From the NCBI GenBank assembly GCA_044344935.1, contig JBIJCA010000001.1, forward strand, positions 17,410 through 81,409: a stretch of 64,000 nucleotides of DNA, written 5' to 3'. Below are positions 38,459-55,919 of the stretch, one piece after another. The position numbers and the translations under genes were made by a program. The stretch comes from Aquimonas sp. (GTDB lineage Bacteria; Pseudomonadota; Gammaproteobacteria; Xanthomonadales; Xanthomonadaceae). Within the stretch, counting starts at the first letter, position 1; each line of letters opens with the position of its first letter. Below the pieces are notes generated by a model that was given only the letters and a program-made list of their open reading frames with translations, made no database searches and was not told where the DNA came from.

Positions 38459-41227
38459 TCAGTTGCCCTCGAAGCCGTGAGCGAAGATGAAGTTCAGATT
38501 GGCTGCTTCACAGGTGGTGCCTTCGAACACGCGAACATCATCGATCCACCAGCCGTTGCCGCCGACTGAAGAATCGCTGCCGGCACGGAAGCGCAAAAGC
38601 ACCGATCGCCCGCCGAAGTCCGCCAGGTTGACCCGGCTGACAACAAACCCGGCGATGCTGCCGTGCCACGCGGCACGGCCGTTCAGCGGGTTGGTCGCTC
38701 CCCCCACGCTGAGCGGACCGACGTAGCCGCCAGCCAGGAAGCGGCTGGCATTTGCAGGCACGCCGCCCTGCGCACCGAGAATATCCGTCCACGTAGTCCC
38801 GCCATCAAGCGAGTACTCCAGCACGCCACCGTCCCAGCTGGCTTCGGTCTGATAGCGATGCGCGAACTCAAGCGTCGCATTGCTACCCACCGCGAGACTC
38901 AGCGGGTTTGCAAGGGTCAACTGACGGTCCGAGGCCGTGGTCGGATTCGGCACGAACCAGCTCCGGGTGGGCGAGTTTGCCGCAGTGCTGACGATCGCGA
39001 AGTTGGCACCGGCACCCGTCCCTGCCACCGCCCAGGCGCCCGGGCCTGACTCGACGTCGTCGGAAAACGCGACCGTATCCGGGCCGAAGGCGGCAGCGCT
39101 GCGACGGATCAGGTTGGTCTCCTCGACACCGTTGCACTGGCCAGCAGCCGGCGTGGCGCCAAGGTCCTCCGCACGCACGATGTAGTGCTGGGCGACGCCT
39201 GATTCGACTTCGATGTCCGCCAGCGCCGTCGCACTGATGCAGGACTCGAGCAGGTTGGCCGGGGCCGGCGTGAAATCCGGGCTGCTGCCGCGGTACACGT
39301 TGTAACGCACGTTCGAAGCGGCGCCGCAGTTGCCGACAGCCGTCGGCCAGCTCAGGGCGATACCGCAGGACGCTGTGCCGGCGCTGGTGGCGCTGGTCAG
39401 GCCGGCAAAGCTCGGCGGCAACGCGCAGGTGCCGCTTGCAGTGGCGCTCGAGCAGGCGCTGGGCGCCGAGGGACACTCTTCCACCGAGTCGAATGCCACG
39501 ACCTGATACACGTAGCTGCTGCCGCCGGAGACGGCGTTGTCGACATAGCTGGTGGCTCCGGTGACCTCGGCGATCTGCACGTAGCCGCTTCCGGGACAGG
39601 TGCCGATGCTGCGCAGCACGCGGTAAGTGCTGATGCCTCCGACTGCCGTCCAGGCCAGCGAGATCTGATTGGCTGCGGTGGCCGTTGCGGTCAGTCCGGT
39701 GGGCGCCGCGGGCGGGTTGCAGCCGCCGATGCCGTCGATCGACACCGGATTCTGGCCCAAGGGGTCGAGGTAGTCGCGTACTCGGGTCGTAGCGCTTCCA
39801 AGGCCGTCCCAGGCATGGAACAGACCGCCGTACTGGTCCCTGAGGTTTGCGCCCGTGGCGCCGCAGGCGGAGGGGCCACCCGAGAGCACGCCGACCAGGC
39901 GCTGTTCGGCGTTGTAGAGCGGCGAACCTGAGGAACCCGGTTCGGTGACGGATGGCGGCAGGGTGGCCGGCATGGGGGTGATGTTCGGCAGGCGCGGTGG
40001 CGTGGGATCCCAGTCGGCGCGCCAGTGGACGCCAGAGGCGCCAGAGATGTTGTCGAGCACCATGTTCTGTTCGACGAAGGTGATCCGCTTCTCATCGACG
40101 CCCGGGTGGTGGATGGAAGCGCACAGCCCGGCGGTGCTGGCGAGGTCGGATGGCGCCGAGCACAGCATCGCCGACGGGCCAGGCGCGCGCCTGTCCCAGC
40201 CCGCCCAGTAGAGGTTGAAGGTGTTGTTCGGGGCCGGCGTCGCCAGCTCCAGCAGGGTGAAGTCGGAGCGGTCACCAGCGGGTGCGCTGCCGCTGAAGGG
40301 ATTGCCGGTCTGAGCGAGGAAGCGCAGTCCGGGCGTGGTGGTCGTGGGTTTGGGCAGGACCGGGCTGCTGCCGCTCGCGGCGGGCACACGGCACGTGGGC
40401 GACTCGTAGTTCCAGTACACCAGCACCGTGGCTGCAGCGGTGTCATTGGCGACACCGCAGTGGGTGGCGGTGGCGAACAGCATGCGGCGGTCATTGGCGG
40501 TGTTGTTGACCAGGGAGCCGGTGCAGGCGTCGGTGCCGCCGCGCGACCAGGCGCCTACCGAGCGACGCGGGAGGTTCCACGGGTCGTTTTCGGACAGGCA
40601 GGCGACGTCGGTGTTGCAGGCGCCGGATTTGCAGGCCTTGGATTTGGAACCGAAGCCGCGGTAGCCCTGGTTCACCGAGTGCATTTCCAGCGTCACTTGG
40701 CTCCGTCCAGACGCCGGAACGCGCAGGTGCAGCAGTGCCTCCTCGCCGAGGACGACCGGCGTCCACAGCTGGCCGTGCGGCAGCATGTCCTGCACCGTGA
40801 ACGGGCCCACCTTGTTGAGCCCGCTGGTCGAGACGATGTTCAGCTCGGCGCCGGGCGGCAGGGCGAACTGTCGGAAGCCGAAGTTCAGGTGAGCGGCGTC
40901 TTCTGCGCTGATACGCAGGCGCCAGATCCAGTCGCCTTCGGGCGACTGCGACCATTCACCGCTGTTCGACGGATTGAAGTCGACCGGGCGTGCGACCGCG
41001 AAGCGCTTGGGAAAGCCGGGCATCTCATCGCGCAGCGTGTCCTCGGCGGCGAGCGTATCGAGGTCGAGCTTGCCGAAGCTCTTCGACGGCACGGCATCAA
41101 GCCCGGCGAGATAGCGGGCATGCGGTGCCTGTGGGTCGACGTTCGCCAGTGCGAACGGCGAAGCGAAAACGATTGCAAGAACGAAGCCCGCGGACAGCCG
41201 CCCGCGTGGCCGGAGTGCAGTAAGCAT
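38459..41227 (-). CDS. secreted lysyl-endopeptidase-type serine protease with FN3 domain(s), jelly-roll domain and IFAHGFE tail
   Basis: Real start at MLTALRPRG (41227); triad ATHC / SDFT / TEPGSSGS; RDQYG; FN3-like APTGLTATAT; WDGGVLEYS..GWWIDDV. The longer listed ORF (to 43981) includes sequence antisense to thrA. Confidence 0.85.
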   Translation of the reverse strand: MLTALRPRGRLSAGFVLAIVFASPFALANVDPQAPHARYLAGLDAVPSKSFGKLDLDTLAAEDTLRDEMPGFPKRFAVARPVDFNPSNSGEWSQSPEGDWIWRLRISAEDAAHLNFGFRQFALPPGAELNIVSTSGLNKVGPFTVQDMLPHGQLWTPVVLGEEALLHLRVPASGRSQVTLEMHSVNQGYRGFGSKSKACKSGACNTDVACLSENDPWNLPRRSVGAWSRGGTDACTGSLVNNTANDRRMLFATATHCGVANDTAAATVLVYWNYESPTCRVPAASGSSPVLPKPTTTTPGLRFLAQTGNPFSGSAPAGDRSDFTLLELATPAPNNTFNLYWAGWDRRAPGPSAMLCSAPSDLASTAGLCASIHHPGVDEKRITFVEQNMVLDNISGASGVHWRADWDPTPPRLPNITPMPATLPPSVTEPGSSGSPLYNAEQRLVGVLSGGPSACGATGANLRDQYGGLFHAWDGLGSATTRVRDYLDPLGQNPVSIDGIGGCNPPAAPTGLTATATAANQISLAWTAVGGISTYRVLRSIGTCPGSGYVQIAEVTGATSYVDNAVSGGSSYVYQVVAFDSVEECPSAPSACSSATASGTCALPPSFAGLTSATSAGTASCGIALSWPTAVGNCGAASNVRYNVYRGSSPDFTPAPANLLESCISATALADIEVESGVAQHYIVRAEDLGATPAAGQCNGVEETNLIRRSAAAFGPDTVAFSDDVESGPGAWAVAGTGAGANFAIVSTAANSPTRSWFVPNPTTASDRQLTLANPLSLAVGSNATLEFAHRYQTEASWDGGVLEYSLDGGTTWTDILGAQGGVPANASRFLAGGYVGPLSVGGATNPLNGRAAWHGSIAGFVVSRVNLADFGGRSVLLRFRAGSDSSVGGNGWWIDDVRVFEGTTCEAANLNFIFAHGFEGN

Positions 41228-51193: not shown

Positions 51194-52126
51194 ATGCAGC
51201 CCATCGACACCGTGGCCGACTATCTGCGCGGCCTGCAGGACCGCATCTGCAGCGCCATCGAGGGCGCCGACGGCGCCGCGCGCTTTGCCGAAGACGAATG
51301 GCAGCGCGCCGAAGGCGGCGGCGGCCGCACCCGCGTGCTGCGCGAGGGCGCCGTGTTCGAGCAGGCGGGCATCGGCTTCTCGGACGTCAGCGGCGAGCGC
51401 CTGCCGCCCTCGGCCAGCGCCGCTCGGCCCGAGCTGGCGGGTGCGTCCTGGCGCGCGGTCGGTGTGTCGCTGGTGTTCCACCCGCGCAACCCGTACATCC
51501 CCACGACCCACGCCAACGTGCGCCACTTCCGCGCGATGCGCGATGGCGAGGTCGTGGGCTGGTGGTTCGGCGGCGGCTTTGATCTCACGCCCTTCTATCC
51601 CTTGGATGAGGACGTGCTGCACTGGCATCGCGCTGCACGCGACCTGTGCGAGCCCTTCGGTGGCGAGGCGCGCTATGCCGCGCACAAGCGCTGGTGCGAC
51701 GAGTACTTCTTCTTGAAGCATCGCGGCGAGACCCGCGGCGTCGGCGGTCTGTTCTTCGACGACCTGCACGAGGACTTCGACCGCGACTTCGCCTACCTGC
51801 AGGCGGTGGGCAACGGCTTCCTCGATGCCTATCTGCCCATCGTCGAGCGCCGCCGCGACACGCCTTTCGGCGAGCGCGAGCGCGAGTTCCAGCTCTACCG
51901 CCGCGGCCGCTACGTCGAGTTCAACCTGGTCTGGGACCGCGGCACCCTGTTCGGCCTGCAGAGCGGCGGCCGCACCGAATCCATCCTGATGAGCCTGCCG
52001 CCGCGCGTGCGCTTCGAGTACGGCTACACGCCCGAGCCCGGCAGCGCCGAAGCCCGCCTCAACGACTACCTGCGGCCGCGGGAGTGGCTTGGGAGCGGGG
52101 ATTCGGGATTGGGGATTGGGGATTGA
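51194..52126 (+). CDS. hemF: oxygen-dependent coproporphyrinogen III oxidase
   Basis: [45 protein letters not shown]. Confidence 0.97.
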
Positions 52127-52265
52127 ACAACCGAGGTTTCGCAAGCGGCTGCCTGCTTGCTCGTGTGCTCGAGAGGGGCGGTCATCGCAGCCGCGCCCGG
52201 AAACCTTGCTGCGCCTCGACAGCCGTCGGCCAATCCCGAATCCCTAATCCCTAATCCCGAATCCC
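52094..52265. repeat. inverted heptamer-repeat element B
   Basis: Four GGGATT(C/G) units at 52098-52125 and five NAATCCC units at 52231-52265; the interior has its own inverted repeats. Confidence 0.88.
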
Positions 52266-52272
52266 GGCCCCC

Positions 52273-52405
52273 AAATAAAAACCCCGGAACCGAGGGGGAG
52301 CGGTTCCGGGGTCGGGGAGCGCGATCCTGGCTGGGGGGAGCCGTGGATCGCGCAGATTCACTCGAGGGGGAGGGAGTGAATCTCTGCGGTGGCGTTGCAC
52401 CACCG
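52273..52405 (-). ncRNA. sX13-like C-loop sRNA, copy 1
   Basis: Four hairpins: CGGTGGTG-CAA-CGCCACCG; AGATTCACTC-CCTCCCCCTC-GAGTGAATCT; GCGCGATCC..GGCT-CCCCCC-AGCC..GGATCGCGC; ACCCCGGAACCG-CTCCCCCT-CGGTTCCGGGGT-TTTTATTT. Lies downstream of polA. Confidence 0.8.
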
Positions 52406-52716
52406 GGATGAGAGATTGCGCCGGGAGCCGGGAGTTCAAGCGCCGACCCGGATCCATTCAGCCGGCCTTTAGCTGGGTCCGAACCTGGAGCAAGGCTTCG
52501 CCAGGTCGAACATTCAACAGGCCGTGCTGGCGGATGCCCGCGCGCTGTGGCGCCGTGCCGATGCAGGGGCTCGCAAGAGGGTCGCTTTGGCCACTGCAGT
52601 TCAGAGCATCTCAGCCCCGCATGGCGGCACGAGCGGTTCACTTCAGTGGAAGAGTCTCGTGCAGGTGCGCGCGCCGGTGTCTGGTTCCGACCGGCTCGGT
52701 ATGCGGCGAAGCGCCC

Positions 52717-52844
52717 AAATAGAAAGCCCCGAGAGCCGGGGGGAGCTCTCGGGGCTTGGGGGCCGGAAGGCGGTCGGGGGGAACCGGTCCTTCCGTGTAT
52801 TCACTCAAGGGGGAGGGAGTGAATCAGACCGGCGTTGCGCCAGT
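52717..52844 (-). ncRNA. sX13-like C-loop sRNA, copy 2
   Basis: Four hairpins: ACTGGCG-CAA-CGCCGGT; ATTCACTC-CCTCCCCCTT-GAGTGAAT; CGGAAGG..CGGTT-CCCCCC-GACCG..CCTTCCG; AGCCCCGAGAGC-TCCCCCCG-GCTCTCGGGGCT-TTCTATTT. A -10-like TAAGAT lies at 52855-52860. Confidence 0.82.
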
Positions 52845-53099
52845 CGTGGGACGCATCTTACGGATGCATTCTGAAATTCGCGTGACTGCGGGCGTGACGA
52901 TTAAGCACAATTAATCTTTCGTTCATTTCCAGATGCGCGCTTCACATGCAGCGTACAGGTCGGAAGTCACGCAACAACCACGCGTTGAACTGAGTAGTTC
53001 AGGCAATCCTGATGTACTTGCGCGCCGCCTTGGACAAGGCCCCGTCAGGGTTTCCCGCCCGGCGTGGCCTCGCCTTTCGCGCGCTTTTCGAAGTCGCAC

Positions 53100-55835
53100 T
53101 CAGTGCGCCTGATCCCAGTTGTCGCCGACGCCGGCATCGACGGTCAGCGGCACCCGCAGCTCGACCGCGCCCTGCATGCGCCGCTTGGCCTCGGTCACCA
53201 GGGTGTCGACGAAGTCCTCGCGGCATTCGAAGACGAGTTCGTCGTGCACCTGCAGGACCATGCGCGCGCGGCCGTCCTGGGTGCCCAGCCAGGCGTGCAG
53301 GTCGAGCATCGCGCGCTTGATGATGTCGGCGGCGCTGCCCTGCATCGGTGCGTTCACCGCGGCGCGTTCGGCGCCGGCGCGCAGGCCCTGCTGGCGCGCG
53401 TGGATGTCGTTGAGATACAGACGCCGGCCGAACACGGTTTCGACATAGCCGAACTCGCGCGCCTGCTGGCGCACCCGCTCCATGTAGCCCTGCACGCCCG
53501 GATAGCGGGCGAAGTAGAGCGCGATGTAGTCCTGCGCCTCGCCGCGATCGATGCCGAGCTGCTTGGCGAGACCAAACGCACTCATGCCGTACATCAGGCC
53601 GAAGTTGATCGCCTTGGCGGCGCGGCGCTGGTCCGGGCCGACCTCGTCCAGCGGCACGCCGAACACCTCGGCGGCGGTGGCGCGATGCACGTCCTGGCCG
53701 CCGGCAAAGGCCGAGAGCAGCCCGGGGTCTTCGGACAGGTGGGCCATGATCCGCAGCTCGATCTGCGAGTAGTCGCAGGCCACCAGCTTGCTGCCGGGCG
53801 GGGCGATGAAGGCGCGGCGGATGCGGCGGCCGTCCTCGGTGCGGATCGGGATGTTCTGCAGATTCGGATCCGACGAGGACAGGCGCCCTGTCGCCGCGCC
53901 GGTCTGGTGGAAGCTGGTGTGCACCCGCCGGGTGTCGGGGTGGATCGCCTCGGGCAGCTTGTCGGTGTAGGTGCCGCGCAGCTTGGCGAGGCTGCGGTAG
54001 TCCAGGATCAGCTTGGGCAGCTCGTGGCGATCGGCAATCGCTTCCAGCGCTTCCTCGTTGGTGCTGGGCGCGCCGCCGGGCGTCTTCAGCAGCGCCGGCA
54101 GGCCGAGCTCGTCGAACAGCAGGGCGCCGAGCTGCTTGGGCGAGTCGAAGTTGAAGCTGCGCCCGGCCAGCTCGAAGCCGCGCTTCTGCAGCTCCAGCAT
54201 GCGGCGGCCCAGATCCTGGCTCTGCCGACGCAGTTCGTCGGCGTCGATCAACACGCCGGCGGCCTCCATGTCGGCCAGCACCTGCACCAGCGGCAGTTCG
54301 ATCTCGCGATACACACGGGCCAGCGTCGGCTCGGCCTCGAGCTTGGGCCACAGGGTCTGATGCAGGCGCAGGGTGATGTCGGCATCTTCGGCCGAGTAGT
54401 CGCGCGCGACCTCGAGATCGACTTCGGCAAACGAGATCTGCTTCGCGCCCTTGCCGGCGACCTCGCTGTACGCGATCGGCGTGTAGCCCAGATAGTTCTT
54501 CGCCAGCGAATCCATGTCGTGGCGACTGGCGGTGGAGTTCAGCACGAAGCTCTCCAGCATGCTGTCGTGGGCCAGCCCGCGGAGCAGGACGCCATGCTCG
54601 CGCAGCACATGGATGTCGTACTTGGCGTTCTGCGCGAGCTTCGGCTTCGATGCGTCTTCCAGCACCGGCCTGAGCTTCGCGAGCACTGCGGCGCGATCGA
54701 GCTGGGCGGGTGCGCCCGGATAGATGTGCGCCACCGGGATGTAGGCGCCTTCGCCTGCGAGGGTCGAAAAGGACAGACCGACGAGATCGGCGCGCAGCGC
54801 ATCGATGCTGGTGGTCTCGGTGTCGAAGCAGATCAGTTCGGCGGCTTCGAGTTCGCGGATGAGTGCATCGAGATCCTGTTCGGTGAGAATCAGGCGGTAG
54901 CTGCCGCGCGCCTGTACCGGCAGATCCGCGGCCGGTGCAGCGGTGGCGACGCTGGGGCCTGCGCCCGCAGCTTTCGCTGGACTGCCGCCGTTGCCCAACT
55001 CCAGGTCGCGCAGCGCCGCATTGAAGCCGTAGCGCGCGTACAGCTGCTTCAGCGCCTCGATATCGCGTGGGCGCAGCCTGAGGTCGGTCGGGCCGCGGTC
55101 GAGCTCGACCGCGGTGACGATGGTGGTGAGCTGGCGGTTCAGCGGCAGACGCGGCAGGGCCGCACGCAGGTTCTCGCCGATCTTGCCGCCCATCGTCGGT
55201 GCAGCCTCGATCACGCCGTCGAGCGAGCCGAACTCGCCCAGCCACTTCGCCGCGGTCTTCGGCCCGCATTTGTCGACGCCGGGGATGTTGTCGACCGTGT
55301 CGCCCATCAGCGCGAGGTAGTCGATGATCTGCTCGGGCCGCACGCCGAACTTCTCGACGACGCCGGCTTCGTCGAGACGCGAGCCGCTCATGGTGTTGAC
55401 CAGGAGGATGCCGGGTCGCACCAGCTGGGCGAAGTCCTTGTCCGAGGTCGAGACTTCGACCTCGATGCCCTCGGCCGCGGCGCGCGTGGCGAGCGTACCG
55501 ATCACGTCGTCGGCCTCGACGCCGGGCACCCGCAGGATCGGAAAGCCGAGTGCCTCGACAATCGCCATCATCGGCTCGATCTGCGCGCGCAGATCGTCGG
55601 GCATGGCTTCGCGGTTGGCCTTGTACTCGGGGTAGAGCGCGTCGCGGAAGGTCGGCCCGGAGGCGTCCATCACGAAGGCCGCATAGGTCGGGCCTTCCTT
55701 CAGCGTCGAGCGCAGCATGTTGACCACGCCGAACAGCGCACCAGTGGGCTCGCCGGCCGCATTCGACAGCGGCGGCAGGGCATGGAAGGCGCGGTACAGG
55801 TAACTTGAACCGTCGATGAGGATGAGCTTGTCCAT
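53100..55835 (-). CDS. polA: DNA polymerase I
   Basis: LILIDGSSYLYRAFHALP, EADDVIGTLA, FDTETT, TGRLSSSDPNLQNIP, DYSQIELR, AKAINFG, QVHDEL. Confidence 0.99.
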   Translation of the reverse strand: MDKLILIDGSSYLYRAFHALPPLSNAAGEPTGALFGVVNMLRSTLKEGPTYAAFVMDASGPTFRDALYPEYKANREAMPDDLRAQIEPMMAIVEALGFPILRVPGVEADDVIGTLATRAAAEGIEVEVSTSDKDFAQLVRPGILLVNTMSGSRLDEAGVVEKFGVRPEQIIDYLALMGDTVDNIPGVDKCGPKTAAKWLGEFGSLDGVIEAAPTMGGKIGENLRAALPRLPLNRQLTTIVTAVELDRGPTDLRLRPRDIEALKQLYARYGFNAALRDLELGNGGSPAKAAGAGPSVATAAPAADLPVQARGSYRLILTEQDLDALIRELEAAELICFDTETTSIDALRADLVGLSFSTLAGEGAYIPVAHIYPGAPAQLDRAAVLAKLRPVLEDASKPKLAQNAKYDIHVLREHGVLLRGLAHDSMLESFVLNSTASRHDMDSLAKNYLGYTPIAYSEVAGKGAKQISFAEVDLEVARDYSAEDADITLRLHQTLWPKLEAEPTLARVYREIELPLVQVLADMEAAGVLIDADELRRQSQDLGRRMLELQKRGFELAGRSFNFDSPKQLGALLFDELGLPALLKTPGGAPSTNEEALEAIADRHELPKLILDYRSLAKLRGTYTDKLPEAIHPDTRRVHTSFHQTGAATGRLSSSDPNLQNIPIRTEDGRRIRRAFIAPPGSKLVACDYSQIELRIMAHLSEDPGLLSAFAGGQDVHRATAAEVFGVPLDEVGPDQRRAAKAINFGLMYGMSAFGLAKQLGIDRGEAQDYIALYFARYPGVQGYMERVRQQAREFGYVETVFGRRLYLNDIHARQQGLRAGAERAAVNAPMQGSAADIIKRAMLDLHAWLGTQDGRARMVLQVHDELVFECREDFVDTLVTEAKRRMQGAVELRVPLTVDAGVGDNWDQAH

Positions 55836-55919
55836 GCGCGGAAGTGTAGTCGCCCGCGCTATGCCTCGCCGCTGCCGCTGGCTATGCTCGGGGTCCGTCA
55901 CCACCCGAGGCCTGCTGCC

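Follow-up and report, generated by a model that had tools for sequence, protein, structure and literature searches.

A tandem pair of sX13-family small RNA elements between polA and hemF in Aquimonas

Small regulatory RNAs (sRNAs) that occur as related neighbors are a familiar theme, and tandem siblings of this kind include PrrF1/PrrF2 in Pseudomonas aeruginosa, OmrA/OmrB in Escherichia coli and AbcR1/AbcR2 in the Rhizobiales. The best-studied regulatory RNA of the Xanthomonadaceae, sX13, has been treated as single-copy: it is described as one gene, always downstream of polA, and in Xanthomonas repression needs both its C-rich loops and the 4G-motifs of the targets, with Hfq being dispensable (PMC3771888). 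Here, we describe a stretch of 64,000 nucleotides (nt) from Aquimonas sp., hereafter the window (assembly GCA_044344935.1, contig JBIJCA010000001.1, positions 17,410 to 81,409), in which two sX13-family elements, copy A next to polA and copy B distal to it, lie in tandem between polA and hemF. In the literature that was searched, no paper on tandem or paralogous sX13 genes was found. We consider it probable that the two elements are functional sX13 paralogs that arose by tandem duplication at the base of Aquimonas and were both retained, making up a sibling-sRNA pair through which two inputs would reach one regulon.

How are the elements tied to sX13? In Rfam, the family is represented by RF02232, with 115 model positions and a gathering threshold of 50 bits. 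Rfam gives no match in the window at gathering thresholds, and the sX13 matches appear only in E-value mode, where both elements align to model positions 1–115: copy B with 37.9 bits (E 2.9e-5) and copy A with 35.5 bits (E 1e-4). All Aquimonas copies score 23–40 bits on this model. A covariance model built from 15 Aquimonas copies (R1) scores 150.1 bits on copy A and 127.6 bits on copy B, and it has matches in 389 of 401 Xanthomonadaceae genomes, representing 63 of 64 genera, nearly always one per genome. On loci found by the Rfam model, R1 reaches 53–88 bits; the locus that scores highest in Rfam, at 136 bits, has 76.7 bits with R1. The 3' end of polA lies within 1.5 kb at 35 of the 39 fetched loci, the position downstream of polA also holds at the other Aquimonas loci, and the order polA – sRNA(s) – hemF is kept in Aquimonas and in most other genera. 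Aquimonas belongs to the same GTDB family as the genomes whose sX13 scores 136 bits. Both elements are divergent members of the sX13 family, since the model built from Aquimonas copies finds the canonical sX13 locus family-wide. The preliminary description of the window had matched the pair to sX13 by position and loop design, an assignment that the end-to-end alignment, the site downstream of polA and the reciprocal retrieval by R1 bear out.

Other Rfam families were rejected as identities for the pair. The ar14 family (RF02344) gives 37.2 and 35.3 bits, against a gathering threshold of 58.8, and the host is a gammaproteobacterium; the similarity is most likely due to loop composition and a hairpin layout that the two have in common. 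ErsA/Pseudomon-1 (RF01719) matches over part of its model at chance level (16.5 bits, E 2.9), and a match to anti-hemB is sub-threshold and was not accepted as a family assignment.

Each copy folds into four hairpins, H1 to H4 (Table 1). The first has a CAA loop, the other three have C-rich loops, and H4 with its U tract was called an intrinsic terminator in both copies by a terminator scan. Folded alone, the four hairpins reach -66.5 kcal/mol in copy A and -66.0 kcal/mol in copy B; the fold z-scores are -7.6 and -8.1, respectively, and none of 200 dinucleotide shuffles folds as well. Runs of at least five C are present in all three C-loops of both copies, and runs of at least four C in each of the H2, H3 and H4 loops of 20 out of 20 Aquimonas copies, while the H1 loop is CAA in 49 of 49 sX13-family sequences. 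The copies have almost the same H2, and H1, H3 and H4 have rewritten stems: of the 41 model pairs, 20 are identical between A and B, 11 carry a compensatory double change and 5 are changed on one side. The preliminary description had placed two minus-strand elements of about 130 nt between polA and hemF, 443 bp apart, and had given them this same architecture, with an almost identical H2 and rewritten stems that still pair. The elements were read at those positions (their starts are 443 bp apart, the gap between them is about 310 nt, and copy A starts about 250 nt downstream of the polA stop at 53100), the layout is seen in the folds and the terminator scan, the stems that were quoted (ACCCCGGAACCG/CGGUUCCGGGGU versus AGCCCCGAGAGC/GCUCUCGGGGCU) are correct as read, and the 11 double-changed pairs still pair. 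The description is accurate, with one correction: hemF is encoded on the strand opposite to the elements.

The signature of pairing is also found across the family. An alignment of 50 sequences was fitted to R1, which leans towards the model; 91.4% of its cells are standard pairs, versus 37.7–48.6% when the 3' partners are slid by one to three columns. Compensatory double changes occur in 37 of the 41 pairs, and not one of 500 shuffles attains such values. A separate MAFFT/RNAalifold run on 15 Aquimonas copies gave compensatory changes in 19 of 32 pairs.

R1 has exactly two matches in the genome of the window, BLAST of each copy against the whole assembly returned only the two copies, and the spacer between them matches only itself. 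When R1 was run over the window for a third, decayed copy in the long spacer, it again gave two matches only. These numbers bear on the idea that the elements act in cis, either as insulators or stacked terminators that separate the convergent genes polA and hemF or as REP-like repeats. The location between convergent genes and the strong terminators at the ends would suit such a role, and a truly dispersed heptamer-repeat element does adjoin copy B. However, with two matches only in their own genome the copies are not dispersed repeats, a possibility that the preliminary description had raised. Furthermore, the loop sequences, and not the stems alone, are conserved across 64 genera, and terminators need no such loops, and experiments have shown that the Xanthomonas homolog regulates in trans (PMC3771888). 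A cis-acting role is thus very improbable.

The Aquimonas set consists of A. voraii DSM 16957 (G010), the only named isolate, and metagenome-assembled genomes. Two R1 matches in tandem were found in 10 of the 11 species genomes. In the eleventh (G002, 75% complete), the hit is weak, covers the terminator region only and lies on a contig without polA or hemF; it is a chance hit and not evidence of loss. The copies form two orthologous classes, the polA-proximal type 1, to which copy A belongs, and the distal type 2, to which copy B belongs. Both types are present in both deep Aquimonas subclades, and the duplication is therefore older than the divergence of the sampled species. No tandem pair was found in the other 63 genera sampled, in which a single copy is the rule.

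A second R1 match does occur outside Aquimonas, in 16 genomes from eight other genera, which were re-searched. There, the two matches are hundreds of kb apart or on separate contigs, and the second is mostly weak (30–49 bits). G013, G016 and G188 have two strong matches on different contigs, while G020, G025, G111, G158 and others have a weak second match far from the first. By genus, these non-tandem loci score 67–77 bits in g4 and g7 and 30–49 bits in g11, g16 and g58. They may represent dispersed paralogs or other C-loop sRNAs.

Are both copies functional, or is only one of them, the other being a redundant duplicate that drifts towards loss? The near-identical loops would allow redundancy, and in the model-fitted alignment pairing is lower for type 2 (87.8%) than for type 1 (95.8%). 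However, the lower value is due to a one-column register shift in H3, and the single-sequence fold is fully paired. Type 1 alone and type 2 alone each have 13 pairs with compensatory changes, C-runs are present in every loop of both types, and both types have been kept in all ten species with an assembled locus, in two deep subclades. The four-fold degenerate sites of the adjacent hemF provide a yardstick in the eight species where they could be compared. In all eight, the identity of both window copies to their orthologs exceeds that of the four-fold sites, for example 0.94 (type 1) and 0.93 (type 2) versus 0.78 in G007, and 0.75 and 0.76 versus 0.50 in G006. Purifying selection acts on both copies, and this speaks against a duplicate in decay; we find that explanation hardly credible.

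Table 1. Features of the polA–hemF interval and of the two sX13-family copies, in window coordinates.
Feature	Position	Strand	Description
polA (DNA polymerase I, 934 aa)	53100-55904	minus	Pfam DNA_pol_A, 5_3_exonuc_N, DNA_pol_A_exo1; upstream neighbor of copy A
Upstream region of copy A (type 1)	52849-52945	minus	conserved; alignments over 10 Aquimonas species and 29 other genera
Copy A, sX13 paralog type 1, polA-proximal	52717-52848	minus	Rfam sX13, R1, fold, loops, terminator scan
Copy A H1	52827-52845	minus	CAA loop
Copy A H2	~52796-52826	minus	loop CCUCCCCCUU
Copy A H3	52764-52795	minus	loop CCCCCC
Copy A linker	between H3 and H4	minus	C-rich, GCCCCCA
Copy A H4 (terminator)	52724-52757	minus	loop CCCCCC, tail UUUCUAUUU
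Variable spacer	52475-52716	minus	unique in genome; unconserved between species
Putative promoter block of copy B (type 2)	52409-52474	minus	sole conserved part of the spacer, 10 species
Copy B, sX13 paralog type 2, distal	52273-52405	minus	Rfam sX13, R1, fold, loops, terminator scan
Copy B H1	52387-52405	minus	CAA loop
Copy B H2	52354-52383	minus	loop CCUCCCCCUC
Copy B H3	52319-52353	minus	loop CCCCCC
Copy B H4 (terminator)	52280-52313	minus	loop CUCCCCCU, tail UUUUUAUUU
hemF (coproporphyrinogen III oxidase)	51194-52126	plus	Pfam Coprogen_oxidas, E 1e-124; convergent downstream neighbor

The regions upstream of the two copies are conserved in different ways. Between the copies, the spacer, including the block before copy B, measures 84–108 nt in seven species and 280–455 nt in the window, G007 and G009, and across ten species conservation is confined to the last ~65 nt, immediately before copy B. 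This block contains CTAAAG..CTGAAY..., followed by a -35-like GAACTC (52432–52437), a 16-nt spacer and a -10-like TCTCT (52411–52415). The arrangement GAACT(C/T)-N16-TCT.T precedes type 2 in 10 of 10 species, ending 2–3 nt before the model start. Written as GAACNN-N16/17-TCNN[AT], it precedes all ten type 2 copies, no type 1 copy out of ten, and 19 single-copy sX13 genes among the 29 from other genera, and it occurs in 0.5% of 66-nt windows drawn at random from this genome; in 18 of those 19 genes it stands at a fixed distance of 3–5 nt from the model start. Promoters of the sigmaE/AlgU type, recognized by extracytoplasmic function (ECF) sigma factors, follow the pattern GAACTT-N16/17-TCTGA, and by this comparison the copy B motif would fit that type. 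In Xanthomonas, the conditions under which sX13 accumulates are 37 °C, high salt and minimal medium (PMC3771888), and these data fit a stress promoter without naming one.

The sX13 flanks were described as 'highly variable' (PMC3771888). Upstream of the single-copy genes (L005–L033), about 95 nt are conserved across genera, with the elements TGAAT - CTGAAT - TTAAC - TTCACGAAC spaced by about one helical turn; N16 and TC(A/T)(T/G)A come next. The phased repeats may be activator sites.

Upstream of type 1, about 95 nt are strongly conserved within Aquimonas. This region is syntenic with that upstream of single-copy sX13 (tCACG..TTTCAG..CCGTA), with the GAAC and TC..A elements mutated. A TAAGAT hexamer (52855–52860) lies 7 nt before the copy A model start, and no sigma-70 consensus site was found in 52000–53200. 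An AT-rich palindrome, GATTAATTGTGCTTAATC (52880–52905; ATTG-N4-CAAT in relatives), located about 45–60 nt upstream of copy A, is kept in the W/G004-G010 subclade; a transcription factor may bind there. Because the two conserved upstream blocks differ, we infer separate promoters for copies A and B. The preliminary description had spoken of a separately terminated pair of siblings: the scan found both terminators, whereas separate promoters are a reading of the upstream blocks.

A second line of evidence on how the RNAs would be made comes from H1. The Rfam model starts with AACGCC. In genomic alignments, this AAC corresponds to the 3' portion of the invariant CAA loop, with the H1 5' arm lying just upstream of the Rfam model and outside the published 115-nt Xanthomonas RNA. 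The arms covary family-wide, with double changes in 6 of 8 pairs and 95.7% of cells paired, and the published 5' end of Xanthomonas sX13 maps inside the CAA loop. The 115-nt RNA was judged to be a processing product, and no transcription start site was found for it (PMC3300014). Most simply, H1 would be part of the primary transcript, with cleavage taking place within the CAA loop or close to it; H1 is a likely processing site. These findings support the four-hairpin architecture of the preliminary description and make a precursor route possible for copy A.

A rival reading is a single transcription unit, in which both RNAs, or at least copy A, are cut at the CAA-loop hairpin from a longer precursor initiated at polA or ahead of copy A, rather than coming from two genes with initiation of their own. 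The Xanthomonas precedent just described speaks for it, as does the lack of an intrinsic terminator between polA and copy A (on the minus strand, the scan found no terminators but those of the two sRNAs). No promoter consensus is seen at copy A, and its terminator U tract is interrupted (UUUCUAUUU), so that read-through is conceivable. On the other hand, the terminator stem of copy A is GC-rich and 14 bp long, the stretch of about 95 nt before copy A is strongly conserved as well, and within a spacer of 84–455 nt only the 65 nt before copy B are conserved, with a promoter-like motif in 10 of 10 species. We regard a single unit as unlikely, and it concerns how the RNAs are produced; it is compatible with both copies being functional sX13 paralogs.

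In the reading that we prefer, a tandem duplication at the base of the genus was most likely followed by retention of both. As to transcription, sigma factor, targets and mode of action, we infer the following. Each copy would give a separately terminated RNA of about 130 nt, whose C-rich loops (4–6 C), by analogy with Xanthomonas sX13, would pair with many mRNAs at G-rich, Shine–Dalgarno (SD)-like '4G' motifs in their 5' regions, repressing translation without Hfq. Because the loops of both copies are almost the same, widely overlapping sets of targets are expected. Copy B would respond to a stress sigma factor, as suggested by the promoter comparison, while copy A would be made otherwise, from another promoter that has a conserved upstream block to itself or by read-through from polA and processing at H1. 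The pair would then act as a sibling-sRNA system that feeds two signals into one regulon.

Several observations weigh against this scheme. Both copies remain under the Rfam gathering score for sX13. A maximum-likelihood tree of 49 sX13-family RNAs is poorly supported and does not show types 1 and 2 as sisters, and acquisition of one copy from another lineage is conceivable. Type 1 is without a recognizable promoter consensus, both in the sigma-70 scan and in the motif scan (0/10). The block before copy B also fits a sigma32-like pattern, CTTGAA-N14-CGCAATCT (CGC(A/C)ATCT), and the two promoter patterns cannot be told apart. No RpoE was found above the NCBIfam cut-off in the assembly, which is 93% complete; the best match to TIGR02939 has 86 bits versus a cut-off of 236, and the open reading frames (ORFs) next to it have no family matches. 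A strict genome scan for TGAACTY-N16-TCTN[AT] gave two sites only, one of them being that of copy B, from which no regulon can be derived, and the upstream regions of five ECF sigma candidates contain no convincing autoregulatory motif.

A more specific version holds that each copy took over part of the ancestral regulation. Copy B would have kept the stress-sigma promoter (sigmaE/AlgU-like or sigma32-like), which looks ancestral to the sX13 family as a whole, whereas the proximal copy would have lost it and come to depend on read-through from polA or a new promoter, with release at the CAA-loop hairpin. This version is speculative, and we offer it tentatively. If it is true, Aquimonas would be a natural experiment that separates 'constitutive' and 'stress-induced' outputs, which are superimposed in single-copy sX13, and the published 115-nt sX13 would be a processed form that has lost the conserved 5' hairpin arm.

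The preliminary description had also named candidate targets in the window, GGGGAG leaders near 41227 and 60726. The motif is indeed present at both places, 7–10 nt before an ATG on the minus strand, but it is an ordinary SD-like motif, non-specific and not evidence of targeting. The virulence label that had been attached to sX13 is not carried over to a set made up of one isolate of A. voraii and metagenome-assembled genomes. Aquimonas is an environmental genus, and the host is not known as a pathogen.

The surroundings of the pair contain a different kind of repeat. Arrays of four to five GGGGATT heptamers and their complement form inverted pairs at 52097–52125/52232–52266 and 50259–50287/50391–50424, each flanking ~105 nt of non-conserved DNA, and BLAST finds 229 array matches on many contigs of the genome. 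These elements look like miniature inverted-repeat transposable elements (MITEs) or REP sequences. One pair lies between hemF, which is on the strand opposite to both sRNAs, and the copy B terminator, and it is the source of a spurious, sub-threshold Rfam match to MIR1437. The last ~10 codons of hemF (52094–52126) run into the array, and the HemF proteins of relatives align to residue 298 of 309 only; a repeat insertion appears, from these alignments, to have replaced the native C-terminus and stop codon. ORFs over the sRNAs (52066–52641 minus, 52408–52722 plus and 52524–52874 plus) and one antisense to hemF have no Pfam match and were rejected as spurious.

The tandem pair varies the organization of a known family rather than adding a new kind of element, and with sibling sRNAs being a familiar theme the conceptual gain is moderate. 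Nevertheless, a regulatory RNA that has been treated as single-copy is here stably duplicated, and the same loops combined with differing upstream regions illustrate duplication as a route for evolving dosage or regulatory input. A. voraii DSM 16957 offers a culturable, non-pathogenic system for sX13 transcription and processing. The comparison also indicates that the Rfam model of sX13 is incomplete: it misses divergent members, all Aquimonas copies being under the cut-off, and omits the conserved 5' hairpin.

The closest known relative is sX13 of Xanthomonas campestris pv. vesicatoria (RF02232; PMC3300014, PMC3771888), with which the Aquimonas elements share the family, the site downstream of polA, three C-loop hairpins (4C/5C in Xanthomonas) with a terminator, full-length model alignment and reciprocal detection. 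They differ from it by being two tandem copies that score 35–38 bits against the cut-off of 50, by longer H2 and H4 loops (CCUCCCCCUU, CUCCCCCU), and by a complete 5' CAA hairpin, a family-wide feature that is missing from the Rfam model and the published three-hairpin structure. The alpha-r14 or 'cuckoo' RNAs (RF02344, PMC4615179) are likewise multi-hairpin RNAs with CCUCC-type anti-SD loops, often in tandem clusters, but they are alphaproteobacterial, the Aquimonas copies match them with 35–37 bits, under the cut-off, and the cuckoo-RNA paper itself holds that homology to sX13 is not established (PMC4615179). ErsA (RF01719) of Pseudomonas aeruginosa is an sRNA that depends on sigma22/AlgU (PMC5819304), and the motifs before copy B and most single-copy sX13 genes would resemble its sigmaE/AlgU-type promoter, judged against the known AlgU consensus; homology, however, is not supported by a chance-level Rfam match. 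Like the PrrF, Omr and AbcR pairs, the two copies are adjacent homologs on the same strand that share their target-binding regions, diverge elsewhere and have their own terminators. Those pairs depend on Hfq and use single-stranded seeds, whereas the Aquimonas pair would, by analogy, use C-rich apical loops as seeds, in a family reported to be Hfq-independent. Finally, unlike those pairs, the Aquimonas copies have upstream regions that differ in kind, with a stress-sigma motif before one copy only.

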